Below, piece after piece: positions 4,011-63,238 of a DNA stretch of 64,000 bases (the first letter of the stretch is position 1; each line of letters starts with the position of its first letter). Under the pieces are notes generated by a model. That model saw only the letters and a list, made by a program, of their open reading frames with translations, made no database searches and was not told the DNA's origin. The stretch is taken from assembly GCF_035084215.1 (NCBI RefSeq), contig NC_090345.1, forward strand, positions 23,560,001 to 23,624,000, read 5' to 3'. The position numbers and the translations under genes were made by a program. This DNA is from Heptranchias perlo (lineage: Eukaryota).

Positions 4011-4890
4011 CAAAGAGTCTGCAAAGGGATATAGATAGATTAAGTGAGAGGGCAAGAAGGTAGCAGATGGATTATAATGTGAGGAAATGTGAGGTTATTC
4101 ATTTTGGTAGGCAGAATAGAAAAACAGAATTTTTTAAATGATGAGAAACTATTAAATGTTGGTGTTCAGAGGGATTTGGGTATCCTTGTACATGAAACAC
4201 AGAAAGTTAACATGCATGTACAGCAAACAAATAGGAAGGCAAATGGTATATAGGCCTTTATTGCAGGGGGATTAGAGTACAAGAGTAAGGAAGTCTTGTT
4301 GCAATTGTACAGGGCTTTGGTGAGACCACACCTGGAGTACTGTGTACAGTTTTGGTCTCCTTACCTAAGGAAGGATCTACTTGCCTTAGAGGTGGTGCAA
4401 CAAAGGTTCACTAGATTGATTCCTGGGATGAGAGGGTTGCCCTATGAGAGATTGAGTAGAATGGGCCTATACTCTCTAGAGTTTAGAAGAATGAGAGATG
4501 ATCTCATTGAAACATATAAGATTCTGAGAGAGCTTGACAGGGTAGATGCTGAGAGGTTGTTTCCTCTGGCTGGACAGTTTAGAACTAGGGGGCACAGTCT
4601 CAGGATAAGGGGTCGGCCATTTAGGACTGAGATGAGGAGGAATTTCTTCACTCAGAGGGTTGTGATTCTTTGGAACTCTCTACCCCAGCGGGCTGTGGAT
4701 GCTCAGTCATTGAATATATTCAAGGCTGAGATTGATAAATTTTTGGATTCTAAGGAAATCAAGGAATATGGGGATCAGGCGGGAAAGTGGAGATAAGGTT
4801 GAAGATCAGCCATGGTCTTATTGAATGGTGGAGCTGGCTCGAGGGGCCGTATGGTCTACTCCTGCTCTTATTTCTTATGTTCTTATGTTC
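4011..4890 (+). mobile_element. CR1-clade LINE, 5'-truncated
   Basis: ORF2 C-terminus LYRALVRPHLEYCVQFWSP...RRNFFTQRVV; 3' tail of TTCTTATG repeats. Confidence 0.93.
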
Positions 4891-8599: not shown

Positions 8600-9605
8600 A
8601 ATAATAATACCTGGAAAAGGTCATTGGATCAACAAGTTAATCTTAACCCCATTTTGCTGCCTTCTCAACATCTATCTCAATTTTTTCTTTCTCCAGAAAT
8701 ATATCTTGTTTTTTGAAACCATGTATAATAATCGCTTCAATGGTTTTTCCTGGTAACATATTCCATATGTGTATTACCCTTAGTATGAAATAATTCTGTC
8801 TGAAATCCCCATTTACTCCTAATTTCCTCATTTTAAAATTCTGATCCCCACTTTCTGAACCTTTCATCAGTGTGAACAATTTATCTGGATCAACTTTACT
8901 AAACCCCTTCATAATTTTGAAAACTTCTATAAGGTCACCGTGAAATCTCTTTTCCAGCTTCCTTAACCTTACCTTGTTACTTAGTGAATCATTTCTCCTG
9001 TCTGTAATTTTGTGAAAAAAGTAGCATGAGTACAAAACCCATGCTGACTTTTTAAAATTATTGAAGTGAGGACTTTTACCCCCCTCCCACCTGGTATAAT
9101 TTTTGTTGCCCTACACCTGAGGACAGTAATAGCCTACGATATAGTGAACAATACTGCACACAGTACACCAGATGAGATTTAACCAGCACCTTTGATAATA
9201 ACATCACCTCACAGATAATACCCTAGTTTCTCTGCAACTGCAATCTGGTACCTTGTTTGCTTTTATTCCATAACATCTATACACTAGGTTGATAATTCAG
9301 TGATTTTTGTTTCCACAATAATATTCCAATCCCTTTCTTGATCGATAAGCTGCATGACTGTTCATGAAGTACATTGATCAGAAAAGGGATTGGAGAACTA
9401 TTGTGGAGGAAAAAATCATTGAATTGTCAGATCTGAGTCAGGATGTTGTGGGTGAAAAGCAAGCAAGGTACAGGGTTGCACTAGGGGAATAGAGTATAAA
9501 ACAAGAGGTGATGTTACTATTGAAGGTGCTGGTTAGACCTCATCTGGGGTACTGGGTGCAGTATTGCTCATTATATCATAGGGATGATATTATTGTCTTC
9601 AGGCA
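8600..9605. mobile_element. Old CR1 fragment (-) with a fold-back inverted copy of its 5' part
   Basis: ORF 8643-9035 (-) has GDLIEVFKIMKG...RQNYFILRVIHIWNMLP. Segments 9115-9355 and 9363-9605 are diverged inverted copies of the RGIEYK...VLVRPHL region. Confidence 0.75.
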
Positions 9606-14000: not shown

Positions 14001-14593
14001 ACTGAAAAAAAGTTATTAACCCATTTTCAAACAAAGCAGAAAATTTAGCTCCATATTATCTGCTACCTGTATCGTACTGGCCATGAGTTGCCTGCACCAC
14101 ATTTCTCTCTTCCATGCAATTGTAGATGCTGTTTGCATTGCCATTTTCCGCTTTTATAGTATTTTTTCCATCAAATACATATGGTGTCTTCACTGAGATT
14201 TCTGAACACTATCTTGTAAGGTAGCTATTGTATTAATTAATATTGTATTTGTTACTGCCCATTGGCAAGGCATGTAATTGGCAAATGAGTTTCAATATAC
14301 ATGTGTGAGGTGGTGCATTTTTGGTAGGAAGAATAAGAAGGCCACATATTGCTTGGATAATAAGTCTAAATGGGGTAGAGGAGCAAATGGATCTAGGGGT
14401 ACAGATACACAAATCACTAAACGTAGCGATGCAGGTTAATAAGGCCATAAAAAAGGCGAAACAAGCACTGGGATTCATTTCTAAAGGGATAGAATCGAAA
14501 AGCAGAGACATTATGTTAAACTTGTGTATAACCTTGGTTAGATGTAAGGAATCTTACAACACCAGGTTATAGTCCAACAAATTTATTTTAAAA

Positions 14594-14630
14594 TCACAAG
14601 CTTTTGGAGATTATCCCCTTCGTCAGGTGA
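14594..14630 (-). ncRNA. Hammerhead ribozyme motif with mutated core (GAAA to AAAA)
   Basis: Reverse complement reads TCAC CTGACGA A GGGGA TAA TCTCC AAAA GCTT GTGA. Confidence 0.7.
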
Positions 14631-15447
14631 ATGAGTGAAAGGTTCTCAAATCGCATATCTTATATTAGGCTGGGACACCATCACACCAATCAAAAGGTGT
14701 CGTTGGTGTTCAGACAGATTAGCCACGGAGAACAGTACGTCCCAGTACACTGAATATACATTGTGTTAAATTACACAGACAGAGAGAAAGAGACCCAAAT
14801 GGCAGAGAGAGAGAGAGAATATTAAAAACAGATAACTTTTTTTTCCCCTTGCTGGTGGGGTTACGTGTAGCGTGACATGAACCCAAGATCCCGGTTGAGG
14901 CCGTCCTCATGGGTGCGGAACTTGGCTATCAATTTCTGCTCGACGATTTTGCGTTGTCGTGTGTCTCGAAGGCCGCCTTGGAGAACACTTACCCGAAGAT
15001 TGGTGGCTGAATGTCCTTGACTGCTAAAGTGTTCCCCGACTGGGAGGGAACCCTCCTGTCTGGCGATTGTTGCGCAGTGTCCGTTCATCCGTTGTCGCAG
15101 TGTCTGCATGGTCTCGCCAATGTACCATGCTCCGGGGCATCCTTTCCTGCAACGTATGAGGTAGACAACGTTGGCCAAGTCACAGGAGTATGAATCATGT
15201 ACCTGGTGGGTGGTGTCCTCTCGTGTGATGGTGGTATCCGTGTCGATGATCTGGCATGTCTTGCAGAGGTTGCCGTGGCAGGGTTGTGTGGTGTCGTGGA
15301 CGCTGTTCTCCTGAAAGCTGGGTAATTTGCTGCGAACGATGGTCTGTTTGAGATTGGGTGGCTGATTAAAGGCGAGTAGTGGAGGCGTGGGGATGGCCTT
15401 AGCGAGGTGTTCGTCGTCATCGATGACATGTTGAAGGCTGCGGAGAA

Positions 15448-16267
15448 CAGGCCCAACGAATACACAGGATCTGCTCAGACGAGGAGGAACGCATGGACAC
15501 CTACAGATGCTGAAAGACGCCCTCGTAAGAACGGGATATGACGCTCGACTTGTCGATCGACAGTTCCGACAGGCCACAGCGAAGAATCGCATAGACCTCC
15601 TCAGAAAACAAACACGGGACGCAACCAACAGAGTACCCTTCGTCGTCCAGTACTTCTCCGGAGCGGAGAAACTACACCATGTTCTCCGCAGCCTTCAACA
15701 TTCATCGATGACGACGAACACCTCGCTAAGGCCATCCCCACACCTCCACTACTCGCCTTCAAACAGCCACCTAACCTCAAACAGACCATCGTTCGCAGCA
15801 AATTACCCAGCTTTCAGGAGAACAGCGTCCACGACACCACACAACCCTGCCACGGCAACCTCTGCAAGACATGCCAGATCATCGACACGGATACCACCAT
15901 CACACGAGAGGACACCACCCACCAGGTGCATGATTCATACTCCTGTGACTCGGCCAACGTTGTCTACCTCATACATTGCAGAAAAGGATGCCCCGGAGCA
16001 TGGTACATTGGCGAGACCATGCAGACACTGCGACAACGGATGAACGGACACCGCGCAACAATCGCCAGACAGGAGGGTTCCCTCCCAGTCGGGGAACACT
16101 TTAGCAGTCAAGGACATGCAGCCACCGATCTTCGGGTAAGCGTTCTCCAAGGCGGCCTTCGAGACACACGACAACGCAAAATCATCGAGCAGAAATTGAT
16201 AGCCAAGTTCCGCACCCATGAGGACGGCCTCAACCGGGATCTTGGGTTCATGTCACGCTACACGTAA
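15448..16267 (+). pseudogene. C-terminal part of the PLE ORF (RT thumb/linker plus GIY-YIG endonuclease), frameshifted
   Basis: ORFs 15507-16043 and 15926-16267. The Cys-rich linker TQPCHGNLCKTC precedes the VY-YIG motif. Confidence 0.88.
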
Positions 16268-16493
16268 CCCCACCAGCAAGGGGAAAAAAAAGTTATCTGT
16301 TTTTAATATTCTCTCTCTCTGCCATTTGGGTCTCTTTCTCTCTGTCTGTGTAATTTAACACAATGTATATTCAGTGTACTGGGACGTACTGTTCTCCGTG
16401 GCTAATCTGTCTGAACACCAACGACACCTTTTGATTGGTGTGATGGTGTCCCAGCCTAATATAAGATATGCGATTTGAGAACCTTTCACTCAT

Positions 16494-16530
16494 TCACCTG
16501 ACGAAGGGGATAATCTCCGAAAGCTTGTGA
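16494..16530 (+). ncRNA. Minimal type I hammerhead ribozyme motif in the PLE terminal repeat
   Basis: TCAC-CTGACGA-A-GGGGA/TAA/TCTCC-GAAA-GCTT-GTGA: conserved CUGANGA and GAAA cores, stem I TCAC/GTGA, stem II, and palindromic AAGCTT at stem III. Confidence 0.85.
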
Positions 16531-19214
16531 TTTTAAAATAAATTTGTTCGACTATAACCTGGTGTTGTAAGATTCCTTATATTTGTCCACCCCAGACCAT
16601 CACCGGCATCTCCACATCATAACCTTGGTTGGACCACACTTGGAGCATTGTGCACAGTTCTGGTCTCCATATTATGAAAAGGATATAGAGGCATTGGAAA
16701 AGGTGCAAAAAAGATTCACAAGGATTCACAACTGAGAGGATATACTTATCAAGAAAGGCTGAACAGGCCGGGGCTCTTTTCTCTAGAAAAGAGAAGGCTG
16801 AGGGGTGACCTGATAGAGGTCTTTAAGATAATAAAAAGGTTTGATAGGGTAGACGTAGAGAAAATGTTTCCACTTGTGGGGGAATCCAAAACTAGAGGTC
16901 ATAAATATAAGATAGTCACTAATAAATCCAATAGGGAATTCAGGAGAAACTTCTTTACCTAAAGAGTTATGAATGTGGAACGCAACCACAAGGAATAGTT
17001 GAGACGACTAGCCTAGATGCATTTAAGGGGAAGCTAGATAAGCACATGAGGAATAGAAGGATATGCTGATAGGATTAGATGAAGAAGGGTGGGGGAAGAC
17101 TTGTGTAGAGCATAAACGCTGGCATAGACCAGCTGGGCCAAATGGCCTGTTTCTGTGCTGTAGACTAGATGTATCACCTCCCAGGCATGGCTTCTGTTTA
17201 AACCTCAACTATTCATTCATACTTTATCTCTTACACATTGCAAGATGATTTCTTTATAGCTGCAGGTTTATGAACATAAATTAAACCATTATTTAAGGCC
17301 GTAAAAAATTTTAGGAACTGGAAAGGACCATCAAGCTCAAACAAGCCTGTCCCTTTTTCATAGATTAACCCACCTCTCACCATATCCCACAAATCTTTCT
17401 TGCTCCAGAACTTCTTCCAATTGTCTCTTGAATCCATAATACTTCATTAATAGACTATTCAACGTGTGCATTTGGGTTCACATTTCACAACAGTTTTATT
17501 CATATTACCACTGAAGGTAGAAATCTTAGTCCTGAGAAAATAAGTGATTTTTGAGGTATTTTCATTTGCTTTGAAAGGCTTACATTGCTTCTAAATGATG
17601 AATCTTTCACATGTGAATGAACCTCAACAATCATTCTCAGTGTGTTATCCAGTATATTAATTTAATTATTCTTCTCTCAACTATTTTTCTACTTCCATAA
17701 ATGTACTCTGGGCCCCAGGCTTCTCCAAGGTATTATTAATACTGGTTTGTACTGGAAGAGATGAAGCGATTCTGTTTCTCTCACCCCAAATGAAGCACTC
17801 TGCTCACACAGGAGATACTCAGAATATATTTTATTCACGACATAGTAATTTAATTTTTAAGTAATGATCTGTTTATTTCTGCTTTACAAGACACACAACC
17901 ACAGCTCTATGTCTGAGAATTGATTCAATCCAATTGTGTACCTGAATAATATATGTGGTAACTTCTTGAACTCCAGCAGTTACAAAGAGCATAACTCCGT
18001 GTATTATGTAAATATCATTACAATACCATCTAACAGTCCAGTCGAGAGCTGTCTAAACATGTCTGTTGGGGAGAATGGAGCTCAAATGTGAGTTGAAATT
18101 GGATATGGGAGTTCACTTCACTTTGTTAAAAGTTGCATCATTCAATGAAAGTGTTACTTTTTTTATTTTGTGCTTTTGGCAATATTTCTTCATTAATTCT
18201 TATAAAGTGAATATTCCTGAACAGTGGATGATTAGAAATCAATATAGAATTAAGGAGCAAACTACATTGTGTGATACAGTGATACAGGACCTTATTGTAC
18301 TATTGCACCGTGTTATGAGGTGGTTGGACACCAATTCATCCCTACGTTGCTTCATGTAGATTTCCTGATCTTGGCTGAATCATTAGGTATATATGTCAAG
18401 CTCAGGCTCGCAAGGAAGGCTCTTTTTCATAATACCCTGCGGAGACCAAAAGAAAACTTGTGGAGTCATCTTGGCTAAAAATCCTGGTGGAGAATAACAG
18501 AACACCATTAGCAGAGGCCTAGGTGTAGGTCAACAACTTGAGATCTGTTGGCTAGAGAGTGGTATCTGTCATAGAGGGGAACCTAAAAAGGGGGTAAGTA
18601 GCTTTAAAAATTAAAAAGAAATATGAATTAATAGAAACAAACTACAAAACTGAGAAGAATAAAAATGAACTCTGACTTGTTTGCAAATTGAAAACAAATG
18701 AATGACCTCATTGGGGGAAATGATGTGTTGGTGTGAGCAAATGATCTGAATCCAAAATTTGAAAATTTTAACCTTTCCATCCAAAATACAGCAGAATTTA
18801 GCAAACTTCCGGTTTTGTGAAGAAAATAATGAATGTCTGGGAGTAAACTACAAGGCTATAATCTAAACAAAGAGCTCAAATAATGTCACAAGCCTTGAAA
18901 GTGAAGCCCAGGTAGTTTCTAAATGTCGGTGGTCCACTGGATAATACTTCAGCCTTCAGTACGCTCATTGGTAGCTGTGAGTATATATATTTATTTAAAA
19001 GTAACAGGTCTCCCATGGTGCAGATACAACTGGCACTTGGAGCTTACTGTATGGAGATCAGGAGTGCTAGCCCCAGTCTTGTGACACAGCACTCTGGCCT
19101 ATCAACATACTGCACCACTAAGCCATCCTTTGAAACTCAATTTTGCAGGAGAGCTATCAATTTTCAATATTTCACACATTGTAAAATAGATAACCCAGTA
19201 GCAGGAGCCATCGT

Positions 19215-22200
19215 GGGCTAAATTGGGCCCCGAAAATGGCATCTGAAGATGCATAGGCACACTTCCGGCGTGACGTGTGCAGGATGCCATCTTGGTAAAG
19301 GTGGCTGCGTGTGTGCACACCTAACGAACAGTGGCAGCATGTAAAGTAGAGAGATTATGATATTGATCAGTGTGCAACGCTAATTTGAAGCAGCCGATGC
19401 CATTTTCGAACTCCCCGCTCCAGCAAACGCACTGTCATAACCTCCCACAGCTGAACAGGAGTTAAAGGGCATGAAGGACTCCCCCCACCAGCATTATTTA
19501 AAGGGGGAGTTGCAGGAGTTACAAGTTAGTTGCTGGATCAGTTATTCTGGCTGCTGGTACAATTGTAGATGTTTGTGGAAATTTCCTATACTTGGAGAAA
19601 GCTGCAATATCCTATACATAGTGATCTGGGTGGTCTTGCAGTTCTGTTAGTGGCATTTAAAATAGAGTGCTAAACAACATTGCTTGCAGACATGGATGGC
19701 CTGCTAGGGCTTCCCCTGGGAATTGAACATGACTGGGAGCATTAAAAGAAGCCACGCAGAGCAGGACAAGCTGCCAGAAGAGGGAGGAGGAGGAGGAGGA
19801 GGAAGTGCAGCAAGAAGTGAAGAAAGTGGAAGAAGAGACATGGAGGCAACAAGGTAGACAGGCCCTGTCTGCCAGGGTTCTGCGTGATCAGATTAAAAAT
19901 AAAAGATACCAGTAACCTCAAGAACACCTCCCCATTCACCAACAGTCCCACACTCCTTACCTTTCCTCTCCCACATGGCCATCAAATCATCCTCCTTGTG
20001 ATTACCCATTGCTTCCTCCCTCAGCTCATCGCAGAAATGAAAGCCAACTCCAAATGCAAATCCAAATCCAAATTTATCAATTAACGTATGTAATAAAGCA
20101 AACAAAATGATACTATTCATCCTTGTGCATTCCCTTAGTGCCTGTCACTCATGTGCCTTTACCTTTCCTAGCACTCCTACAAGGTGCATTGCCAGTAACA
20201 GGAGCATGAGTGGTGGAAGGCTGTTGACCTTCAATTGAGGAGAGTGCAGATGACCTTGGAGGACGACCTTGAGCAGCTCTGGGCCAGGAGGGCCCGGCTT
20301 CAGACTGCACCACCTCAGCATAGGCTGCAGCTGTCTGGCCAGGCTGGCTGACAGGCAACAGCATGGACACTGGCGGAGTGTCAGGGGTGGGAGCAGGAAT
20401 ATTGTCATCCTGAGAGAGGACAACAGGTTCGTCTTCAATGGCGCCACTGCCATTTTCACAGGGCAGTGCCTCAGCAATCCTGGTGATCAGCTGGAGAACG
20501 GTTTGCTGGATTGCTGTGATGCCCTGGAAGCCCCGTTCCACAGTGGTGCCCAGAGCCATGATAGCAGCAGTCTGAGCCTGTAACACAGCGGTCTGAGCTC
20601 CAAATGAAGCATACAGATGTTGGATGGCAGATGTTTGTGCTGCAATGGAAGTTGTGACATTGGGCATCAGACGCTGCATCATGGTGGGTTCTACAGGTGT
20701 GCTGATGGAGGTTACCACCCATTCCATGTGGGAAAGGATGGGCTCCAAGCTCTGCGCAAAGCCCTGTGTCAATTTGGAGCTGGACTCCTCCATGAACCTT
20801 GACATTGTATGCAGGCTTTCTGGCAGGCTTCCCAGTGCACCAAGCACTCGGTTGTGTAAGCCCATCAGCCTTCTTCTGTAGCCTGGCCCATCGAAGTCAT
20901 TATCTAACTCCTCTGCAGCAGAACTAGTGTGTGACCACACCCTCCAGCGAGCTGGCACGTGTGGTATCCCTTCCCCCCACCCTGGCTCCTGGCATTTGTG
21001 CCCAGTGTCTCACCACATGCAGATCCCTCCTTTAACCTAGCCTCTAAAGTATGCGCAGTATCAGTATCTGTGCTGGCAGCTGCGAGTGTAAAATCGAGTG
21101 ACGGTGTGTCTGTATCATCACTGTCATCTTCCTCTGCCTCCTCTGACTGTGCCGGTTCCAGTTCTTGGGTGTCTCAAATGACAAAGGGAGACGGGTTGAG
21201 TTGTGGTGCGGGGAGAGGAGAGGAGAAAGTAAGACATGCGTGCTGACACCATTTGCAGCATTTTAGTCAGAAAAGATTGTGGGCTGAGGGAGAAGTGGGA
21301 AGCGAGGAGGATTCCGTATGCAGAGACCCTCGTCATCGCTACCTCCAGCACCACCAGTGGCCACGGCCACAGCGAAGGACTGCCAATGATCGCCAGTACG
21401 GCGTCCTCTATGGGGGTGAGGACATGTAGGCACGCCTGTTCTCCCCCAGGTCTTTCCTGCTGCATGTTGTTATGCGCCACCTTCACCTACAAGAAAGAGG
21501 GAAGTGTGTCAGAGAGTGTCCTGCAAGATGTTTGGGTGATGTAGCTGTCATGATTGAACAGCTGCCGGTGTGTGTGACCTGTGAGTTTTGGGTGTGTGGC
21601 TTGCAAGAGTGGTAATGTTTGAGGGTGAGATGCAGCCTCTGATTTGCAAGGTTGCATACTGATTGAAAGAGTTTGTTGGTAGGTGGGTGATGGGGGATTT
21701 TGTGCGTTGAACAGTGGATGATGCTAGTGGTGCAGTTGGTAGGATATGCCACTTGACAGTTGAACGCATTCACCTCGACCACTCGTGACAAATCATTGAA
21801 CTTCTTTCTGCACTGCATCCATGTGCATGGAGTGATACTCCTGGCATTGACCTTGTCCACCACAGCCTCCCACTGCCTCTTCAGCATATGTCTGGAGGGC
21901 CTCCTGCCCCACTGTGGATATAGGATGGCCCGCCGTCTGTCCACCTCTTCCACCAAGGCCTCCAGTGCACCATCCGGGAACCTTGGTGCACGCTCTCTCG
22001 CAGGCGCAGCCACTCCTCAATATCTTCCAGCCCAGGAATCACTTCACACCACTTCCTGCAGCCACAGAGCACCTCCCCTTTAAGAGGTGCAGGCTACCTT
22101 TAAATAGTGCTAGCCACTCCCAATAGCGGGGCCCCCGGCTGGTGCGTTGCGCCACTCAGCGCACATAGCGCTGGCTGCACGCAGCAATCATGTAGATTAG

Positions 22201-22303
22201 CAGGCAGCATGAATGTTACGTGCTGCCTGCATCTCAACGACCGGGCATGGGTTAATCATGCACCTAGAGCCCAGAGCCTATTTTCAGGGGTTAACCAATT
22301 TAA
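19215..22303. mobile_element. Harbinger/PIF deletion derivative: transposase mostly deleted, Myb gene retained
   Basis: Imperfect inverted termini GGGCTAAATTGG and CCAATTTAA. Only N- and C-terminal transposase remnants remain, at ~19693-19890. Confidence 0.7.
20149..22013 (-). pseudogene. Spliced Myb/SANT-like gene of the second Harbinger element
   Basis: Exon 22013-21774 reads RERAPRFPDGALEALVEEV...QWEAVVDKVNA...TWMQCRKKFNDL. A second exon starts at 21486 after TTGTAG. The last long ORF (20149-20958) ends in basic RSARKGKGT. The start codon reads GTG. Confidence 0.8.
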
Positions 22304-24440
22304 TGTTTGATTTTTTTAAAATTAGTATTTCTTTTAACTTCATAACCTTTTTTACACAAGTCTGTTGATGTAGTAAAACTATCTGCTCAGAATTTTAATT
22401 TAAAAAACAAGAAATACTTTCTTCTGTTTCAGTTTCAGATATGTGGCATAGCATCTCACCAGCAGGGTGCACTGTGCAACACCACATCATCATAGCCACT
22501 GCTATTGTTTCTGCAGTATATAATTGTAAAGCATATGTTTAAACAGGAATCAACTTCAACATTTTCACATTAGCACATGCAGCTTTTGTTTCTAATCCTC
22601 AGCAGTACATCCCCAAGAAAATGTGTGATCTGTCTTTCTAGCAATATATCATTTTAATCATAAGATAAGGGCCACAGACATGACGTTAACCCCTGTTCCT
22701 GCCTGGCGGGGATGGGTTAAAGTCACATCTGTGGCCACCGCCCCCAACTCCACCACCCCCCAGTCATTTTAACTGACCCGTTTGTGGCTGTGTCAGGGGC
22801 CTGCCCCAGAAAAGTGGGGTCCTAATTAAAAGGCTAAAGTTGCGCTCTGATGGGGTCGTAGCCGCTTCCATCGTATTTTAACTCCAAATTGTGGATGCTC
22901 CGCCCATTCTCGAACCCGCCAGCAAAACCTAGTGGGATTGGTGTCTGAGAGCTCCTGAAGTTGCAGCTCACTGGATAACAGGATCTTTTGTTGTCTGGAT
23001 TGCCAGGAGTGTTTCCAGCTTCCAGACTTCTGCAACCGCCTGCAACATGACCTGCTGCCTGCCAGGCCAGGGGGGCAAGCCTTGCCAGTGGCCCTCAAAG
23101 TCACCACTGCCCTGAATTTTAACATCACTGGCTCCTTTCAGTCTACAACAGGGAACATCAGATGCATCTGCCAGACTGCAGTTCACAGCTGCATTAAGCT
23201 GGGGACCGACTCCCTACTTGCCAGGGCTGAGCAGTGTATCACCTTCCCCACTGACCTCAGCAGTCAACAGGAGAGAGCTTGTGCCTTTGCTGCAGTTTCT
23301 GGCTTCCCTCGCGTGCAGGCAGCGATTGACTGTATACGTGTGGCCAGTAGGGCACAGGAACTCGAGTCTGAAACATTCATCAACACTTTGTCAATGTACA
23401 GCTAGTGGCCGATCACAGGAACAATATCACGCAGGTCTGTGCAAGGTACCCAGGGAGCGGCAAAGATGCTTTTATTCTCAGACACTCTACCATCTCCTGC
23501 TTTTCAACCCTGGGAGGAGTGTGACAGGATGGCTGCTAGAGGACAAGGGATAATCCCTGAAGAACTGACTGATGACACCTTTGTGCAATCCCACCACGCC
23601 AGAGCAGCACACGACAGCAGTGCTCAAGCAAAGGTTTAGGTTTCTGGACCTCCCGGGGGGCTCCCTGCAATATGCCCCAGATAGAGTATCATGCACTGTC
23701 ATGGTCTTCTGCATATTACACATTGCATTGCAGAAAGGCCTGAATTTGGAGGAGGAAGAGCAGCAGCAGCAGCAGTCGTCATCAGATGAGGAAGACCTGG
23801 AGGAAGGAGAGGAAGCAATAGAGGAAGGAGGGCCACATTACCATCTTGCAGCCAGAGATCAGCTCATAGGTCAGCGATTCATAAGAACAAAAGAAATAGG
23901 AGCAGGATTTGGCCATACAGCCCCTCGAGCCTGCTTCGCTTTGACTTCAACTCCACTTTCACCGCCCTATCCCCATAGCCCTTGATTCCCTTAGTGTCCA
24001 AATATCCATCGATCCCAGTCTTGAATATACTCTGAGCAGCCACAGCCCTCTGGGATAGAGAATTCCAAAGATTCACAACCCTCTGAGTGAGGACATTTTT
24101 CCTCATCTCGGTCCTAAATGGCTGACTCCTTATCTTGAGACTATGACCCCTAGTTCCAGACTCTCTGGCCAGATGAAACAGCCTCTCAGCATCTACCCTG
24201 TCAAGCCCTCTAAGAATTTTATACGTTTCAATGAGATCAACTCTCATTCTTCTAAACTCCAGAGAATATAGGCCCATTCTACTCAATCTCTCCTCATAGG
24301 ACAACCCCCTAATCTCAGGAATCAATCTAGTGAACCTTTGTTGCACCCCTTCTAAGGCAAATATATCCTTCCTTAGGTAAGGTGACCAAAACTGTGCACA
24401 ATACTCGAGGTGTGGTCTCACCAGAGCCCTATATAATTGC

Positions 24441-24644
24441 CATGATGTGGAGATGCCGGTGATGGACTGGGGTGGACAAATGTAAGGAATATTACAACAC
24501 CAGGTTATAGTCCAACAAATTTATTTTAAAATCACAAGCTTTCGGAGATTATCCCCTTCGTCAGGTGAAGGGGATAATCTCCAAAAGCTTGTGATTTTAA
24601 AATAAATTTGTTGGACTATAACCTGGTGTTGTAAGATTCCTTAC
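24441..24644. mobile_element. 204-bp palindromic PLE terminal-repeat insertion, same family as 14543-16620
   Basis: Sequence nearly identical to 16490-16620 on -, plus an inverted partial copy. TSD TATATAATTGC at 24430-24440 and 24645-24655. Confidence 0.92.
24532..24568 (-). ncRNA. Minimal hammerhead ribozyme motif, intact core
   Basis: Reverse complement is identical to 16494-16530. Confidence 0.85.
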
Positions 24645-26994
24645 TATATAATTGCAGCAAGACATCCTTACTCCTATACTCCAACTCCCTTTCAATAAAC
24701 CATTTGCCTTCCTAATTGCTTGCTGAACCTGCATGTTAACTTTCTGTGATTCATGTACAAAGACACCCAAATCCCTCTCTATACCAACATTTCTTAGTCT
24801 CTCATCTTTTAAAAAATATTCTGCTTTTCTATTCTTCCTACCAAAATGGATAATTTCACATTTCCCCACATTATACTCCATCTGCCACCTTCTCGCCCAC
24901 TCACTTAACCTGTCTATATCCTTTTGCAGACTCTTTGCATCCTCCTCACAGCTTACTTTCCCACCTAGCTTTGTATCGTCAGCAAACTTGGATACATTAC
25001 ACTCGGTCCCCTCATCTAATTAATTGATATAGATTGTAAATCCTTGCAGCACTCCACTAGTTACAGCCTGCCAACCCGAAAATGACCCATTTATTCCTAC
25101 TCTCTGTTTTCTGTCCATTAACCAATCCTCAATCCATGCTAATATATTACTCCCAATCCCATGAGCTCTAATCTTGTGTAACAACCTCTTGTGTGGCACC
25201 TTATCGAATGCCAGTTGAAAATCCAAATAAGCTTCTTCCACTGGTTTCCACTTTATCTACCCTGCTAGCTACACCCTCAAAAAACTCTAATAGATTTGTC
25301 AAACATGATTTCCATTTCATAAAACCGTGTTGACTCTGCCTAATCATATTATGATTTTCTAAGTGTCCTGTTACTACATCCTTAATAATAGATTCTAGCA
25401 TTTTCCCTACTCTTGATATCAGGCTGACTGGCCTATAGTTCCCTGTTTTCTCTCTTCCCTCCTTTCTTAAATAGTGGGGTTACCTTCCAATCCACGATCA
25501 AAACCAATGCATCCACTATCTCTGCAGCCACCTCTTTTAAAACCCTAGGATGTAGGCAATCAGGTCCAGGGGATTTGTCGGCTTTTAGTCCCATTAATTT
25601 CTCCAGTACTTTTTCTTTACTAATCTTAATTGCTTTAAGTTCCTCCGTCTCATTTGACCCTTGGTTCCTTACTATTTCTAGTTTGTTTTTTGTGTCTTCT
25701 ACTGTGAAGACAGATAAAAAATATTTGTTTAACGTCTCTGCCATTTCCTTATTCCCCATTATAATTTCTCCTGTCTCTTTTTCTAAGGGACCTACGTTTA
25801 CTTTTGCTAATCTCTTCCTTTTTACTTACTTGTAGAAGCTCTTACAATCTGTTTTTATATTTCTCACTAGTTTATTCTCATATTTTATTTTCTCCCTTTA
25901 TCAATTTCTTGGTCATCCTTTGCTGATTTCTAAAACCCTCCCAATCCTCAGGTTTACTACTTTTTTTGGCAATATTGTAAGCCTCTTCTTTTAATCTAAT
26001 ACTATTCTTAACTTCTCTCGTTAGCCACGATTGGATCATTTTTCCCGTGGAGTTTTTATTCCTCAAGGGAATGTATATTCATTGAGAATTATGAAGTATT
26101 TCTTTAAATGTTCGGCATTGCTTATCTACCGTCATATCTTTTAATCTAATTTCCAATCTACTTTAGCCAACCCACCGCTCATACCTATGTGATTAGCTTT
26201 GTTTAAATTATGGACCCTAGTTTCGGACTTAACTACATCACTCTCAAACTCAATATGAAATTCTGTCATATTGTGATCATCCCCAGAGAATCCTTAACTA
26301 TAAGATTACTAATTAACCCGGTCTCATTACACAATACTAGATCTAAAATAGCCTGTTCCCTAGTTGGTTCCTCGATTCCACTGAGCTTCTCACACCTGAG
26401 AACTTACAAAGAACCTCATGAATAACAGTCCTTTCATCCTGCACTGAAGAATGTTGAAACCTTTCAGACACCTTCCATGTTAATGACATGCTGACCACGC
26501 AGACTCAAAAGTTGCTTTAAACCACACTGCAGACCAAAGTTTTAAATACGATAAAGGTGATTAATTTAATGGCAAACATAAAAATGCCTTCCATTCATTT
26601 CTCACCAAGGTGATCAACCCAAAGTGTTTTACTTTAAGAAGATTTTCTAACTCTACTACTCCCATGAGTTGCTCCCCTAGTGGCCTGAGCAGAGCTGGTG
26701 GAAGGCTGCTGTTCCTCATGTGCGGACGCTCGACATACTCATGGCCAGTGAGTTCTGGGTGCTCGGGCCTGTGAGGTCCTGGCCAAGGCTGTTGCAATTC
26801 GGCTATTGCCAGAGTAGACGGGCTCTGCTGACTTGCTAGCACTATGGCGGGTATTGGTTCAGGGGGTGGGTGGCCAGTGGGCAGATGTGCTGACACCCTG
26901 ATAGAGGCCAGCACATACTATTCCCACTGCACCAGTGCCACTCCCCAAGGGAGTGGCACTGGTGCAGTGGGAGTAGTACGTCCTGGCAGGACAG

Positions 26995-27661
26995 GTTAAG
27001 AAAGCAGTTAAAAAAGCATACAGGATCCTGGGCTTTATAAATAGAGGCATAGAATACAAAAGCAAGTAAGTTATGTTGAACCTTTATAAAACACTGGTTT
27101 GGCCACAACTGGAGTATTGTGTCCAATTCTGGGCACTGTACTTTAGGAAGGATGTGAAGGCCTTAGTGAGGGTGCAGAAAAGATTTACTAGAATGGTTCC
27201 AGGAATGAGGGACTTCAGTTATCTGGATAGACTGGAGAAGCTGGGGTTGTTCTCCTTGGAACAGAGAAGGCTGAGAGGCGATTTGATAGAAGTGCCCAAA
27301 ATCATGAAAGGTTTAGATAAAGTAAACAAAGAGAAACTGTTCCCATTGGCAGAAGTGTCAAGAACCAGAGGACACAGATTTAAGGCGATTGGCAAAAGAA
27401 CCGAAGGCGACATGATGAAAAGCTTTTTTACGCAATGAGTAGTTATGATCTGGAGCTTGCTGTTTGAAAGAGTGGTGAAAGCAGATTCAATTGTGGCTTT
27501 CAAAAAGGAATTGGATAAATACTTGAAGGGAAAAAATTTGCAGGGCCACAGGGAAAGAGCGGGGGAATGGGACTAACTGGATTGCTCTTACAAAGAGCTG
27601 GCACAGGCTCGATGGGCTGAATGGCCTCCTTCTGCGCTGTAACAATTCTATGATTCTATGA
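26995..27661 (+). mobile_element. CR1-clade LINE 3' fragment, different subfamily
   Basis: LYKTLVWPQLEYCVQFW...RRLRGDLIEV; tail TTCTATGATTCTATGA; GACAG flanks both ends. Confidence 0.9.
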
Positions 27662-29082: not shown

Positions 29083-30998
29083 GGGCTGCATTTTGCTGTG
29101 AAAACAACGGTGAGGCTAACAGCGCTCACTGTTATTTCTGTACAAATCGGACAGTAACTTCCGACGACCGCACATGCGCAGTTAAACGCGGAAATCTGGA
29201 AGTTGCTGAACGAGATACACTGCTCCTCCGTAAGCTCTCACCGGCTGGCTCCCCTTTCAAATGAATGGAATAGCGTGAAGCTCCTGCACTGACATCGTAG
29301 ATATGGGCTAATCTCGCCAGAAAACATTAGGGCTTGTCCATTCCATTGTAAATACCCTGTTAATGGCATGGTAAGTCTTAATATATTAGTATGGATATAT
29401 ATATATATAATCTCATTTATTAGCATAGATCGAGGATAGGTTACAGACAGAAAACACAGAGTAGGAATAAGCGGGTCATTTTCAGGTTGGCAGGCTGTAA
29501 CTAGTGGAGTGCCGCAAGGATCAGTGCTTGGGCCTCAGCTGTTTACAATCTATATTAATGACTTAGATGAAGGGACCGAGTCTAATGTATCCAAGTTTGC
29601 TGACGATGCAAAGCTAGGTGGGAAAGTAAGCTGTGAGGAGGATGCAAAGAGTCTGCAAAGGGATATAGACAGGTTAAGTGAGTGGGCAAGAAGGTGGCAG
29701 ATGGATTATAATGTGGAGAAATGTGAGGTTATTCACTTTGATAGGAAGAATAGAAAAACAGAATATTTTTTAAATGGTGAGAAACTATTAAATGTTGGTG
29801 TTCAGCAGGATTTGGGTGTCCTTGAACATGAATCACAGAAAGTTAACATGCAGGTACAGCAAGCAATTAGGAAGGCAAATGGTATTTTGGCCTTCATTGC
29901 AAGGGGGTTGGAGTACAAGAGTAAGAAAGTCTTGCTGCAATTGTACAGGGCTTTGGTGAGACCACACCTGGAGTACTGTGTACAGTTTTGGTCTCCTTAC
30001 CTAAGGAAGGATATACTTGCCTTAGAGGGGGTGCAACGAAGGTTCACTAGATTGATTCCTGGGATAAGAGGGTTGTCCTGTGAGGAGAGATTGAGTAGAA
30101 TGAGCCTATATTCTCTGGAGTTTAGAAGAATGAGAGGTGATCTCATTGAAACAAATAAGATTCTGAGAGGGCTTGACAAGGTAGATGTGAGAGGCTGCTT
30201 CCCCTGGCTGGAGAATCTAGAACTAGGGGGCATACTCTCAGGATAAGGGGGTCAGACATTTAGGACTGAGATGAGGAGGAATTTCTTCATTCAGAGGGTT
30301 GTGAATCTTTGCAATTCTCTCTAGAGGGCTGTGGATGCTCAGTCGTTAAGTATATTCAAGACTGAGATCGATTGATTTTTGGAATCTAAGGGAATCAAGG
30401 GATATGGGGATCAGGCGGGAAAGTGGAAATGAGGTCGAAGATCAGCCATGATCTTATTGAATGGCGGAGCAGGCTCGAGGGACCATATGGCCTACTCCTG
30501 CTCCTACTTCTTATGTTCTTAATGACTGCCAAACAACCTCTTTGGCATTGAAAATTAACTTTAACAAGTGTGGAGTCTCATTCCTTCAGATTTTAATTGT
30601 TGTTGGACATTTTTTTTAAAAACATTTTAATAAATTTTTATTTTTTTACTTTTTCTTTCTGTCTCTTTTATCTCTGTCTCTTAATCCAATTATTTCTTAC
30701 CCTCTCTTTATTTTGCTTTCTGTACCTGATTTGACATTGAATTCACTATTCTAACTTACACTTCTTGGTTCTGACTCTGTGCAGCTTATTAACATGCTTT
30801 AATCTGATGGGTTAAGGGGATAGACAGTTGTTTGCCCTGTTCACACAGGTCCCAGATGCCCTGTAGAGGGCACCATTCTTTTTAGCTCTATAATTTGGAG
30901 GAATTTGCTGTGCAAAAGCTCATAGAAAGTCTCTGGGCAAGTGCAAGTCTAACGAACGGCGGGCATGTTCGTTTGCCGCTCACAGCAAAATCCAGCCC
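29083..30998. mobile_element. Non-autonomous DNA transposon with 19-bp TIRs, containing a CR1 insertion
   Basis: GGGCTGCATTTTGCTGTGA at 29083 and TCACAGCAAAATCCAGCCC ending at 30998 (1 mismatch). Confidence 0.8.
29430..30521 (+). mobile_element. CR1-clade LINE, 5'-truncated, same subfamily as 4011-4890
   Basis: 245-aa ORF with PQGSVLGP, KFADD and LVRPHLEYCVQFW; tail TTCTTATGTTCTTA. Confidence 0.95.
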
Positions 30999-33419: not shown

Positions 33420-33863
33420 TAGTATGGTTTTATTTATAAATGATGAACCAGGATACTGTATATTAATTCTACAGCTTTCTTAGGCCAACAGGCTTTAATT
33501 TGCATATATTTTGGCAATATGAATTACTTTTTAGGACAGCCAAGTGGCATAGTGCCAACGGAGAATCCAAGGACATGGGTTTGTACCTATGATTCCCTAT
33601 GTGATGAGTTTCCAATCTGAATAAGCTCTCAGGAGAAGGCACCTAGCAAAGATGAGGTGTTTTCTCTAAAGGGAAGGAGGGAAATGGACAGTAAGCAAAC
33701 CCGTGCTGCTTTCATGAACCCACTATTGACTGATTACAGTCGAGCCATTGGCAAAAGTTTGAAAGCAGATCACCTGCTTATTGTCCTTTTGAGAATGGTG
33801 TCTAGGAATTGGGGTGTGTATCCAGCCCAAACTGCTATAATGAAAGCCTTCTGTCTGTAAGGT

Positions 33864-33967
33864 TCTGTCCGCATCGTTCACCTGAGGAAGGAGGTAGCCT
33901 CCGAAAGCTTGTGAATTTAAAATAAAATTGCTGGACTATAACTTGGTGTTGTAAAATTGTTTACAAT
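33864..33967 (+). mobile_element. 104-bp solo PLE terminal-repeat insertion (diverged subfamily)
   Basis: Similar to 16490-16580; perfect 12-bp TSD TGTCTGTAAGGT at 33852-33863 and 33968-33979. Confidence 0.88.
33877..33915 (+). ncRNA. Minimal hammerhead ribozyme motif
   Basis: TTCAC-CTGAGGA-A-GGAGG/TAG/CCTCC-GAAA-GCTT-GTGAA. Confidence 0.85.
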
Positions 33968-36900
33968 TGTCTGTAAGGTGTAAGCTTCTCACATGAAAGG
34001 AGTTTGACTTTTCTCAATCAAGTTCCTAGTGGGTGTGAGCCTACAACACAAATTGCCCATAATTGTGCATTAAATGGCAATACTTTAACACTCCCATCTA
34101 GAGATGCTGTAGGATGACTGGGGTGGGAAGAGGAAAAACTCATGCAGGTGCAATAAGGGCGTTCTTCTGAAGTTCTGCTCTTCTAAGGCAAAATTGTAGC
34201 AGCTGGTTGCGCTATACCTGATCTGGGAGTGTTTGATGCTAACACTGGATGACAACAGTATTCCACTCCCAGCACAGCACTGAAATCCTTCACTTCAATG
34301 AGCACAAAACTTAACTCATGTAAAAGGGAGAAATAATGGCATCTGCCATAGGTTTACTGAAAGAGGGGGAGAAATATATATTTTTTAAACAAAAAATATT
34401 TTTCTAATTGTCACAGAATTAAGACGTTTGTGTTACTGAATTAGAAAACACACCTGCAGAATTCTGCCTTTCTTTGCCAAGAAGCCCTGGCCAGGGCTCA
34501 CTGCCTAAATACATTCTGACACTATCAGGTAAAGTTAGGCACCCATGGATCTATAAGAAAACAAACCACCTGCGATTGTCTAGATTCAGCTACACAGGGA
34601 GTCCAAGGTCATAGGTTTCTGCCCACCATTCCTAATTTAATTATTTGCCAATCTGACGCAAGCTATTGGAGGAAGGCACTGAACATAGATGGTTTCACAG
34701 CACTACCCAAGGTACTTAATACTGACACAATGTTATCCATATATTTAGGCAATAGGAAACTTAAAGACATAAGTCTATGAGGATTCTTTATCATGCTGGT
34801 GCTTACTATGGTACAAATACATTGTTGCCATTAAATCCTGTTAAACTGTTGCCAGTTTTCCTGTTTAAACTTGTAATCTATTTGTATTGTCCAGTATCTT
34901 GAAATAAAATGTAGATAAGAAATAAAATGGATTTATTTAAATTTGGATTCATCCAATGCATTTAATATTAGAAGCAGATATTCTTACAATGCACTGCAGC
35001 TTTAAAAGCCATTTGAATCTGCAGCAATCATTAGTTACATCAGCACAATTAAAAATTCTATAGTAATCCCAGCCAGTAACAGCTGGTAGGAGTGTTTAAA
35101 ATGTTCTATTATCCAATTATGTTGTTGGTATTAATCTCTAATATCAGATCTAATGTGGTACTTACTGATGTTACCAGATAGAATATTTTCTATAATTGTA
35201 TCACTTATTACAATCAATTATCAGCCAGAAGCCCAGAAAGGAAGGGTATCCAGGCAGTATATGATTAGCTTATCATAATTGAAATTCAGTCATCTCATTT
35301 TTTAGTATAAACAATTCCTTACACATCTGGAATAGCACTCCTACATCTGGAATTGGGCTTCTTCCTCATTGGGTTATCTTGGATGCTGTTCAATGGAAGC
35401 ACTAAGCTTCTTTCATAAGCTCCAAAGATGAACACCAAATAATATATCGTTTCTTGCTTATCAGGGCGTAGCCCAACTTACGTAATATTTTCACTATTTC
35501 AATGTTAGATGTTCCAAAGTTCTTTCCAAAATAATTCCTCCCTTGGCTGCTTTCCTGGAATCAATTCTGGGGCTGTCTCAGGATGCACTGCTGCACAGTT
35601 TCTCAGTGTTAGGAATTAGCACCTTCCCAGTCTCCCGCCAACAGAATTGTGTAATTCCTTTTTTTCATTCACTTTTCTCAATATGTTCTAATTGCCAGTA
35701 TTTTAAAGGAAATAATTTATGTTTCTTTAAATTAGTCCACAGATGCATTCTACTCTAACACATATTACTCTGATTCTGTTTCAATAGGCCTTAGGCAGTT
35801 GTTATAATGAAAGTTTAGTTTAAAAAGACACAGTTGATTCGAAGAGTATGCTACTATCCTTACCCAATTACAATAATGTCTCTTTTAAAACACAGCAATG
35901 AATTTCATTTCAAAATTAAATATTAATTCAAAACTAGTACATCAGCAGAGTATATCTTAGTATATATTTAAAAACATTCTAATCTCTATAAAGGTCTGAA
36001 CATTCAGGACAAAGACGTTTAATAGTTTACCTTTCCTGTGAAAAAAATGGAAATGATTTCTAAATTCAAAAATTAAAATTTATAGTAGGCTTGTACTAAG
36101 AGACTGAAAGATAATACATGGTGAGTTTTCTTACAAATGTTTCAAACTTCATTTTGCACTATTAAGAATATAGCACGTCCTTTTTTCTCCCCTTGCTTTG
36201 GATACTTAAACAGACTGCAGGGCATCACAGTATAGAGAATTATTGTCTTTGCTCGGTTCACACTGATCAAAAACAGGATCTGGCTCCACTGGGATATCCC
36301 CACTGTAAAACAACCATTCACTTTCCAGACTCGTACGTAAAGAATGGCCACTGGCTATTTGAGTGAGGTACTGAAGGGTCAGTGTCGCTCATAGATCCGT
36401 GGCACATTGGTCACTGCCTTTTGGGAGAGAAGTAGGGATAGAAAACTACATCAAAAGAAAACAATAAAAGGTTATCAAAAGTTACACCAATCTCCTTTGT
36501 TTCATTTTTGGTTGCTGATGATGATTGCTGATGAAATTATTTGGCAAACCTCTGGAAGGTGTTACTGAGTGGACAGTGTGAAGGAGTTGATTTAATGTCA
36601 CTCGATAATCATTAACCCACCAGGGCCTCAGCTTCCACTATTCGTATTCACTTATCTCCCTCATTTTTTTGTCTCGGAACGGTTCCCCGTCACCAGCGTT
36701 GACCAAAATAAAAGCAGTATGAAAACAAGAATAAACCAACAGGAAGTTACAGATAATGACAATTTTCGGTAACCGTTTGACTTTTACAAGGAGTTAATGA
36801 CGGTGACACCTTACAAGACGTTATTTTTAAGTTTCAGTTTAAATACAAAGCAGCAGGTGCAGTCAAGAGGAATGTGATATATTAGACTAGATACCAAACA

Positions 36901-39900
36901 ACCAATGGGAATGATAGTCCTATGAATGACGTTTCCCAAATCAATTTACGTTTCGTTTTTAATTTTTCGTGCGGAAGATAAAATAATGCAAATAAGGTTC
37001 AACCTGGTGCAGAGAATTGTAGCGCCATCATCTGCTGCCACTGCGCCATTTATGTATTTAAAAAACGTTTTGATTTTCAAAAGTACTGAGGGATACAATG
37101 CGTTTCTTATAGTTTCACAATGGATTCTGAAAAAAACAGCACTCACTTTCCTTGTTTGTAAGCCAGTTTGGTGATTTGAGGAATTTATGTTCACAGAAAT
37201 TGACAAAATGTAGAGATGATCGTGGAAATTTGCTGTTGTGAAAAACATTGATTAAAACGCAGGCAAGTTAAATTGAAGAAAACATGTTATTCTAATATAG
37301 TAGTGTTGTTGTACCCTTCGCTTCTTTCTTGACGCTCTATCCCTTGTAATTTTCATGGCACATTATATTGCAAGTATATCAGTTTGCACAATAGTCAGAA
37401 TGATGTCACAGACTCTATTCAGGTTGTAAGAACATTGCTTATCATTCTGATCACTGCGGATAATTGCTCAGATTGGGGCGACGAATTCTGAGGAGGCCGC
37501 AAGATCACAGGCTACGCGTGAAATGTTTGATAGGATCATCGCACTGCTTAATAAACTGATGTAGTATTAAAGAGTAGAGAAATCAGGGACGCACACGCAA
37601 ACCTGTTATGAGCAATCTTTTCCTAAACACTTAATGTGGTAGAATGTCAAAGAACAAATATTTACTATTGCATTTCTGCAAAAATCAATACTAAACAGGT
37701 TAGTTTCCGAAATTAATAACCCCATGTCTGTGCTCAGCATTCAAATGTCGCGGTTCTATAATTAAACTGAGTAAATGTTCCATTTAACTTTAGTTAAATA
37801 TTTTATACTTTTTAAATTACGTGCTTCATGCATTAAATCATATGCAACTGAGTTGTATTAATTTACTTACCTAACCTAATATAAAATGGTACAAATCTGG
37901 ACTAAAGCAACGTTTAGTATGTGTTGCATAGTGTTGGTTCTAACGTCTCCGTCTATTATATTGAATGAAAATCAGCACTTAATAGTGATTAGTGAAATTC
38001 TATTAACGTCTTGCGTTAGAGACGAAGGTTTTTCATTGCACCCCAATCACAATAATGATTTCAGCCCCAAACACTTACTCAGCCAGCTTTACACTACACC
38101 TTTTTGGACAGCTGGATTTACGCTATAGTGTCAGGATAATGACCCGGTTTATACACCGCCAGCTTTAAAAGAATCTGAAATTCACTGCTTTCCAAATGGC
38201 ATTTTTTTCTAAATCCTTTTAAAGATTCATCAATAAGTGTCCCTGGTATCAGGTCATTGGGTACGGGACTAACCTATCGATATACAGAATTGAGGCCAGA
38301 GCAGGGTCTGGTTTGATTTCTCATTAAGAGAAAGCTCGCGAGTAAGATATTAATGACATGTATTAAGTGTTTGGCAAATGTCTGGGTATCTGTTTCCTTT
38401 ACTTCTGATCAATAGATTAGACAGTCCGAGCGATGGATGCATGTGCCGAGGTAAAGAGAAGCAATGTACTCGAATATGTGTTTGTACCTATGGCTGAAGA
38501 CAAGCCTTTTTCTTACTTGTGGTCTTTTTGCCGACTAATTCTGAATGAGACTTTAAAAATATTTTTGAGGTAACTTTAAGGGCAGTGATAAAGTCAAACG
38601 AGCCAAGCTGACCCGTACAAGTGCAACCAAAGAGGGACAAAAAAGCAAACATCGTTCCTTCACAAAATATTGGTACCATGTTGTGGGTGATACCACTGCA
38701 AGTCGAGCCAGAAATTAAACGCAACATTTGTGTGCCGCAAAAACGTAGCAATCATTGTCACAAGCTATGTATTTATTTACTGTAGCGTTTATGGGAGAGG
38801 CCTCTTGGGCTACCAACACTAAATGAATAAATCTCATATCAGTAACATTTCAGAGAGGGAACATTTTACTACTATCACTGTGACAAAGTCAGTATTGTTA
38901 CTTTATGGTGCAAACTACCCTGTAAGAATGAACAAAGAACCCATCTACCGTCAAATATTAGATGCCAATGTGCTACCGAACGTTTGGACTTGGACAAATT
39001 CCCTAGAATGATATCGAGGTTAACATTTTCTCCATTACACATTCTTCCACTATATAATGATTCAAAGCTATCATTTTGGGCATTCATCATGACCGAGCAT
39101 GATAATGCAATAATATTTAATAATTCACACGGTCTGAAAATTGTTTTGGTCGGATATTGCCTTTTTGCGGATAAAGGAATTATGACATTGTTATCGACGG
39201 CATTCCTGAACCCCTCATAATTATGATGATGAATATTATAGCTTGGAATCATTCATATTTAACTGTGCAAATGCTGACACGCTATTATTGACAAAATATG
39301 TCATAACAATTCTGCCTTGTCTTCCAAAATTCGTATCTACAATATTAGCCATATTGCGCTATTTTTTTCCGCGAATGTTTAAAATAAGCGGAGCATTCAG
39401 GAGAAATAAAGGTTTGTGTTGCTGTTGTTTTACCGAGATTGCTCACGCCTGCTTGAAGGGTTTAATATTAACAGAACAGAATCACATCCCCGTTGAAAGT
39501 GTTAAATAGATAATCTCAAATCCATTTGGCAAAGTACTAAAAAGTCACTGTTACATTAATCGGAAATGAGGGCTGGTTTGGAAAGACATCATTAAGTTAC
39601 TAATACGTCACTGGTCCGCAAAATCAAATACCATTTGACAATGTTCACATCTGGAACTTAAATCATAATAACTACTGCATTTAAAATAAAATGTATAGAC
39701 AGTAAACTCACATGTGAGTGCAATGTAGACACCACTGCTGATACATCCAGTGGTTAAGATAGGTACAGCATGACATCAATTGTAATAAAATCAGAAAATG
39801 CTATAAATGCTGTCTGCATCCCAGACAGGCTTGCTGAGAATTTCAAGCATTTCCTGTTTTTGTTTCAGATTTGCAGTTTTTTTTTCTTTCCATTTCTAAC

Positions 39901-45570: not shown

Positions 45571-46650
<1,080 letters not shown>

Positions 46651-63012: not shown

Positions 63013-63238
63013 GTCAAAAGTAAAATACTGTGAATGCTGGAAATCTGAAATAAAAAAACAAAAGGCTGGAAATACTCAGCAAGTCAGGCACTATCTGGAG
63101 AAGGAAACAGCGTTAATGTTTCAGGTCGATGATCTTTCATCAGAGAACTACGAAAGGTCATCGACCTGAAATGTTAACTTTCTTTCTCCGCAGATGCTAC
63201 CTGACTTGCTGAGTATTTCCAGCATTTTCTGTTTTTAT
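63013..63238. mobile_element. Palindromic insertion of a second PLE-like terminal repeat with a degenerate hammerhead motif
   Basis: Inverted arms centred on ~63147. The - strand reads CTGATGA A AGATC ATC GACCT GAAA CATT. TSD CCCAC(G/A)CTAA at 63003-63012 and 63239-63248. Confidence 0.75.

Follow-up and report, generated by a model that had tools for sequence, protein, structure and literature searches.

Why two Penelope-like retroelements should lie in the same short coding motif of two different CR1 elements is the question raised by a 64,000-nucleotide (nt) stretch of the Heptranchias perlo genome (contig NC_090345.1, positions 23,560,001 to 23,624,000; hereafter the window, with coordinates counted from its first base). 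CR1, in which this vertebrate DNA is rich, is a long interspersed nuclear element (LINE), and the two interrupted copies are referred to as host 1 and host 2, carrying insertion 1 and insertion 2, respectively. The insertions are real and structurally ordinary for the Penelope-like class, and some target preference is likely to lie behind their co-location.

Structure of the two insertions

Host 1 is a plus-strand CR1 copy (subfamily B in our own labelling) whose open reading frame 2 (ORF2) was located upstream of the insertion at 14270-14542, using tblastn with the window's CR1 ORF2 peptide and translation of the empty site, and whose 3' part runs from 16634 to its end at 17173, with loose contig ends behind 17162 and 17173. 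Insertion 1 is bounded by plus-strand target-site duplications at 14528-14542 and 16619-16633, differing by one mismatch (14/15 identical: 12 exact, then A/G); their true length is 12-15 nt, and the initial AT may equally be the end of the element's own tail. Counted between the two copies, the insert is 2,076 nt long, in agreement with the 2.1 kb of an earlier note made on this DNA from its letters (hereafter the original prediction). It consists of a 5'-truncated, tail-less inverted arm (14543-15449, minus strand), which holds the GIY-YIG part and the 3' untranslated region/pseudo-long terminal repeat (pLTR), and a direct arm (15450-16620, plus strand), likewise 5'-truncated, with a tail at its end. 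The arms are unequal in length (907 nt inverted, approximately 1,170 nt direct) and show 885 matches and 17 mismatches over 907 columns. The tail (16583-16620, plus strand; approximately 38 nt) is one-sided, being without counterpart in the inverted arm, which stops at the equivalent of 16582. In run X1, a joint of depth 1,600 runs from the tail end (16619) back to 16550, within the pLTR of the element itself, in the manner of a tandem or self-insertion.

Host 2 is a minus-strand CR1 copy (subfamily A in our own labelling), with its 3' part at 23880-24428 and its ORF2 upstream of the insertion at 24656-26600, the latter placed by three-frame translation and tblastn, with an approximate far end set by eye. 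The minus-strand duplications of insertion 2, at 24429-24440 (adjoining the tail) and 24644-24655, are exact (12/12 bp) and enclose an insert of 203 nt, one fewer than originally given, which is a hairpin of the same element end that is found in insertion 1. Its tailed arm (24441-24569, minus strand; tail 24441-24481) matches the end of insertion 1 in 124 of 128 columns, its tail-less inverted arm (24567-24643, plus strand) matches the other arm in 76 of 78, and the two arms have 3 nt in common at the centre.

Both interrupted sequences are CR1 ORF2, on opposite strands, and are 67% alike over 284 nt, so that two independent insertion events are indicated; a single event that was later duplicated is ruled out by this low likeness together with the different structures of the two inserts. 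On these points the original prediction, which had proposed two independent Penelope-like insertions in one CR1 ORF2 motif of two differing, oppositely oriented copies, is confirmed. The empty site of host 1 (plus strand) translates as NLCITLVRPHLEHC and that of host 2 (minus strand) as LLQLYRALVRPHLEYC; the motif first quoted for CR1 fits host 2 but not host 1. When the two copies are aligned on the motif, the duplications abut or overlap by 2 nt. They meet in one arginine codon: the duplication of insertion 1 begins there, and that of insertion 2 has the AG of this codon as its last letters. The sites had been described as abutting, and they are indeed neighbours within the motif, but they are separate sites, with joints 10-13 nt from each other (10-12 nt on the tail side, 13 nt on the other) and unlike flanks. 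As had also been proposed, both insertions have their tail directed towards the 3' end of CR1, a shared orientation that is a 1-in-2 event.

Host 1 differs from the majority of run X1 at 25 of the 33 CR1 rows listed, by hand count no less than 4.5% of 560 nt, compared with approximately 1% for each arm of the insertion, and at this one site most of the sequence changes in host 1 are therefore likely to be older than insertion 1.

With the reverse transcriptase (RT) cut short (both copies are truncated within or after it), the element was classified by its endonuclease and its layout, and on these features both insertions are assigned to the endonuclease-bearing (EN+) Penelope-like elements of Neptune/Nematis type. 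The C-terminal endonuclease coding part, read by translation in the direct arm of insertion 1 (15845-16267, plus strand, including the stop codon), has the features described in PMC8557442. It opens with a linker finger, C-x4-C-x2-C, at 15845-15874, which fits the C-x2-5-CxxC definition of that paper; since such a linker marks Neptune and Nematis and is lacking in Penelope/Poseidon (PMC8557442), it points to the former. GIY- and YIG-like motifs, together with R, H, E and N residues, precede the stop codon of the reading frame in the translations, and the direct arm carries the CCHH motif as C-R-K-G-C between GIY and YIG followed by two histidines, the position of one histidine being taken by reading the translations. 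The Pfam GIY-YIG match, found in the inverted arm only, has an E value of 0.0005 and 20.8 bits, below the curated cut-off of 22.6. Both insertions combine an inverted 5'-truncated copy, a one-sided tail (38-42 nt) and a target duplication, and an inverted copy with a one-sided tail is the customary layout of the Penelope-like class (PMC8557442, PMC3846280).

Minimal hammerheads have been reported in the pLTR of Penelope-like elements (PMC4209133). A hammerhead-like core can be read in the pLTR at 16498-16522 (plus strand), and again at 24564 (minus strand) and 33882, with core letters and stem II present; the pattern used also matches outside Penelope-like copies (11 of its 15 matches). The hammerhead family is absent among the 8 Rfam matches of the window, and the monomer fold is no better than that of shuffled sequences. 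The Rfam microRNA matches in the window are generic hairpins below their cut-offs.

A third, older relative of the same Penelope end lies on the plus strand at 33852-33979, between 12-bp duplications (33852-33863 and 33968-33979). Its element part (33864-33967) is 84% alike, without tail or inversion, and its surroundings do not match the CR1 copies of the window; two of the three family-related copies in the window are thus inside CR1. Ends of a second Penelope-type family, with a hammerhead-like core, are found at 63018-63238, 57266-57323 and 39830-39876. The copy at approximately 63018-63238 is a hairpin outside CR1, with an imperfect duplication of approximately 10 bp and TA flanking both sides, and this copy and the older relative bear out the original remark that other Penelope-type insertions of the window are not in CR1.

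Target preference and rival explanations

Under uniform insertion, two events in different CR1 copies would fall within 13 nt of the homologous position with P = 1.5e-4, or 7.6e-5 per pair if the same orientation is also required. Over 188-564 assumed pairs (188 windows of this genome with 1-3 pairs each), 0.014-0.086 such pairs are expected. Because a pair of this kind is so rare, a non-random preference for this stretch of CR1 is likely. The proposal that the family prefers a conserved CR1 sequence is upheld to this extent, while a dedicated targeting of CR1 is unsupported.

The reading that we favour, with some reserve, is a soft hotspot: the endonuclease would have a loose, probably symmetric preference, the CR1 motif would offer a suitable site twice, and the family would not be specialised on CR1. 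A dimeric enzyme would nick both strands approximately 12 nt apart, leaving 3' overhangs, and both ends would serve as primers on the element RNA, with one start of copying at the tail end and the other approximately 40 nt further in, after which the two truncated copies would be joined head to head. The different end points of the arms in insertion 1 and the 3 nt shared at the centre of insertion 2 fit two separate copies. The preferred site may resemble CT-N10-AG with a stagger of approximately 12 nt, a pattern read off three sites and put forward weakly. In the Y-R-x-x-x-R stretch of CR1, two arginine codons that start with AG lie exactly 12 nt apart and would form two candidate sites (here site a and site b); as this spacing equals one duplication length, duplications made at the two would abut. 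Repeated throughout a LINE of very high abundance, a site of this kind could act as a hotspot that takes a small share of insertions, and if it is symmetric, both orientations would be predicted there.

An alignment to CT-N10-AG that fits 11 of 12 letters is possible for all three family sites, the site beyond CR1 among them; host 1 reads AT instead of CT. Of its two neighbouring candidate sites, each host is interrupted at the one with the better match (site b in host 1, 3/4 against 2/4 for a; site a in host 2, 4/4 against 2/4 for b), a comparison that is partly circular. The host 1 site comes close to a palindrome, having 8 mirror pairs out of 13, a number attained by 0.8% of background 26-mers; the majority of run X16, from another organism, has two letters unlike host 1 upstream of the site, and both differences add to the mirror symmetry of host 1, which is 8/13 compared with 6/13 (hand count).

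Several results weigh against this reading. CT-N10-AG was derived from the same three sites on which it was scored, and the third fits only after a 3-nt shift from the centre of its duplication. Random triples with free centres do as well with P = 0.079 near the duplication edge and 0.24 in any columns; if shifts of no more than 1 nt are allowed, the three sites score 10/12 (P = 0.068), and the two CR1 sites alone give P = 0.20-0.54. Since the fit is not significant against random triples, the pattern is offered as a hypothesis and not as a result. The site in host 2 is not symmetric over 26 nt (3/13 mirror pairs; background mean 3.3). The window contains 203 perfect CT-N10-AG sites and 3,050 positions with 3/4 matches like that of host 1, so that the short pattern alone does not single out the CR1 stretch and a longer, degenerate one would be needed. 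Five ordinary CR1 copies span the motif, of which two are hit and three, all on the plus strand, served as uninterrupted controls (4011-4887; 26992-27641, a third subfamily; and 29415-30521, with a Pfam RVT_1 match at E = 9e-13); in the last of these, site a fits the pattern at 4/4 and is nevertheless empty.

A stronger form of the same idea, in which a dimeric GIY-YIG enzyme would read a target of two symmetric half-sites, cut it with a fixed stagger of approximately 12 nt, prime from both ends and prefer such sites so strongly that the conserved ORF2 motif receives a large, oriented share of insertions and CR1 becomes a working safe haven, is considered improbable; if true, it would mean that a Penelope-like element parasitises a LINE.

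The most serious rival is chance, to which we give a lesser but appreciable weight: an abundant Penelope family would insert nearly randomly into DNA of which CR1, with an excess of 3' ends, makes up 12%, and the coincidence would then have been picked out, leaving ordinary nested insertions. CR1 covers 7,535 of 61,563 background bases (approximately 12%, or 7.5 of 61.6 kb; coordinates partly by eye), and five copies extend across the motif. The summed depth of the Penelope end in run X1 is of the same order as that of the CR1 3' part; at 16508-16615 it reaches 5.5-6.7 million, which is not a copy number and indicates that the element end is very abundant. Chance would also accord with the difference between the two sites and with the non-significant motif test. 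Set against it is the expected number of pairs given above, and a general preference for A+T gives it no help, the three sites having 57-60% AT compared with 59.4% for the window; local AT richness as a cause was rejected on this comparison. The count of 0.014-0.086 does not include windows beyond the 188 or the other coincidences that might have been flagged, and these keep chance in consideration although it is not favoured.

Dedicated targeting, in which the family would have evolved to recognise the conserved ORF2 sequence and use CR1 as its safe haven in the way that Tx1L uses Tx1D, is improbable. Both young copies in the window (2/2) lie in the motif in the same orientation, and a precise multicopy target has a Penelope-like precedent in the spike-moss elements of 28S ribosomal DNA (rDNA; PMC8557442). 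Cut positions 10-13 nt apart with unlike flanks, however, leave no single fixed position, the older relative is outside CR1, and 3 of the 5 motif copies are empty. Two weaker points come from contigs of four runs (four organisms) aligned to the insertion 1 tail and host 1, data in which CR1 rows dominate and the counts of run X1 were capped: no joint from tail to CR1 is present in the best 15 of 1,005, where joints at the same site would be invisible, and no gap falls at the junction among 12 of 88 indel rows listed. In the same data, no loose ends at the tail end appear among 24 of 3,656 rows listed, a result that is readable neither way.

The last two accounts are very unlikely. Homology-guided landing, with the RNA tail pairing to a similar CR1 stretch just downstream and so steering the insertion, could draw on the 9-10 letters (one gap) that the insertion 1 tail shares with the sequence just downstream of both sites, but it was rejected because 12-85% of 60-nt windows score equally; the other tail copy matches worse, and copying of the Anolis element starts at RNA lacking homology with the cut DNA (PMC11167929). 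A fragile site, where a break-prone or hairpin-forming CR1 stretch would gather events of many kinds, Penelope insertion included, would suit the 12 of the 15 best-supported joints that start at 16662-16674 (11 returning to 16622-16637) in all four organisms, and the old fold-back repeat at 9133-9600, made of the same motif; but a single old subfamily, or the edge of the aligned stretch, may be the source of the go-back joints, clean duplications of 12-15 bp suit endonuclease cuts, and hairpin folding was rejected on ordinary single-strand folding energies (the two sites are equalled by 34% and 55% of background 60-mers).

Other features of the window

Among the CR1-related sequences, 11 of the 15 best-supported joints correspond to an apparent tandem repeat of approximately 51 bp (17 codons, in frame) of the ORF2 motif, the top row being represented by 29, 21, 26 and 22 contigs in the four organisms. 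Possible sources of this repeat are a minor CR1 subfamily, a satellite and an effect at the edge of the aligned stretch. The old fold-back repeat (9133-9600) is 450 bp long, and both of its arms carry a decayed LVRPHLEY motif of CR1/L2 type. The CR1 copy at 26992 is truncated at its 5' end and is immediately preceded by a near-perfect hairpin of 73 nt (26911-26983).

Decayed transposon pieces at 20150-23985 and 600-1200, which we take to be Harbinger-like, include a Myb/SANT domain (21486-22016) as well as a region with a weak match to DDE_Tnp_4 (23569-23982); host 2 ends inside the latter region. A tandem array of seven 33-bp units occupies 2205-2534. Two homeobox exons in tandem (Pfam Homeodomain) are located at 45571-46650 and 58082-58657, presumably of HMX3 and HMX2.

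Comparison with known systems

No report of a spaced symmetric target or a CR1 hotspot for a Penelope-like element was found in titles and abstract openings of open-licence papers, among the matches listed, a scope that excludes subscription papers, Repbase reports and figure S1B of PMC11167929 (genomic homing sites); Penelope is not mentioned in PMC13343379. In pattern scans, 7 metagenome loci, none of them animal DNA, matched the window over 22-25 nt at most, viral contigs gave 0 matches, and prokaryote genomes gave 1 locus, in a flavobacterial metagenome-assembled genome (MAG). Target choice, cutting and the formation of inverted copies with a one-sided tail are poorly understood in Penelope-like elements, and in vitro assays have covered one protein (PMC11167929). 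If the site is indeed symmetric, with a stagger of approximately 12 nt, it would connect the length of the duplication with the predicted dimer and with the two priming events; its value is a cut geometry that can be tested, for an enzyme about which little is understood, and two events cannot establish it.

The closest resemblance is to Neptune/Nematis (PMC8557442, PMC3846280), in the C-terminal GIY-YIG domain with CCHH, the linker, the inverted 5'-truncated copy, the one-sided tail of approximately 40 nt and the short duplication, and one rotifer copy of this type sits in a non-LTR element (PMC8557442). The insertion biases reported for the group are different: microsatellites are favoured by Naiad and Chlamys, with the same hypothesised for Neptune, and 28S rDNA by spike-moss families, with no spaced symmetric site or LINE hotspot in the part of PMC8557442 drawn on here. 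PAc, the Poseidon protein of Anolis carolinensis, cuts and extends both strands, with two starts of reverse transcription that bound the tail, and is predicted to be a dimer (PMC11167929); such cutting and double priming account for the layout observed here. PAc differs in belonging to Penelope/Poseidon, without the linker finger that the present element carries, and in its preference for AT-rich DNA (ATT; PMC11167929), the three sites described here being no richer in AT than the window.

Outside the Penelope-like class, Tx1L of Xenopus laevis, found in Tx1D, is likewise a retroelement lodged in another mobile element, but it has an apurinic/apyrimidinic (AP)-type endonuclease that nicks almost solely one site (PMC1950540), in contrast to the GIY-YIG enzyme, the two differing sites and the relative elsewhere described here. 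It is common in human DNA that insertions of one element concentrate at particular positions and in particular orientations in another (PMC2836564), and nested long terminal repeat (LTR) elements of plants have a weak palindrome preference (PMC6911290). Those studies concern Alu, L1, LTR and hAT elements and thousands of events, compared with two events of a Penelope-like element in CR1. The likeness to the human hotspots is that a host repeat multiplies a favoured sequence, so that the inserting element recurs at the same position and in the same orientation (PMC2836564).

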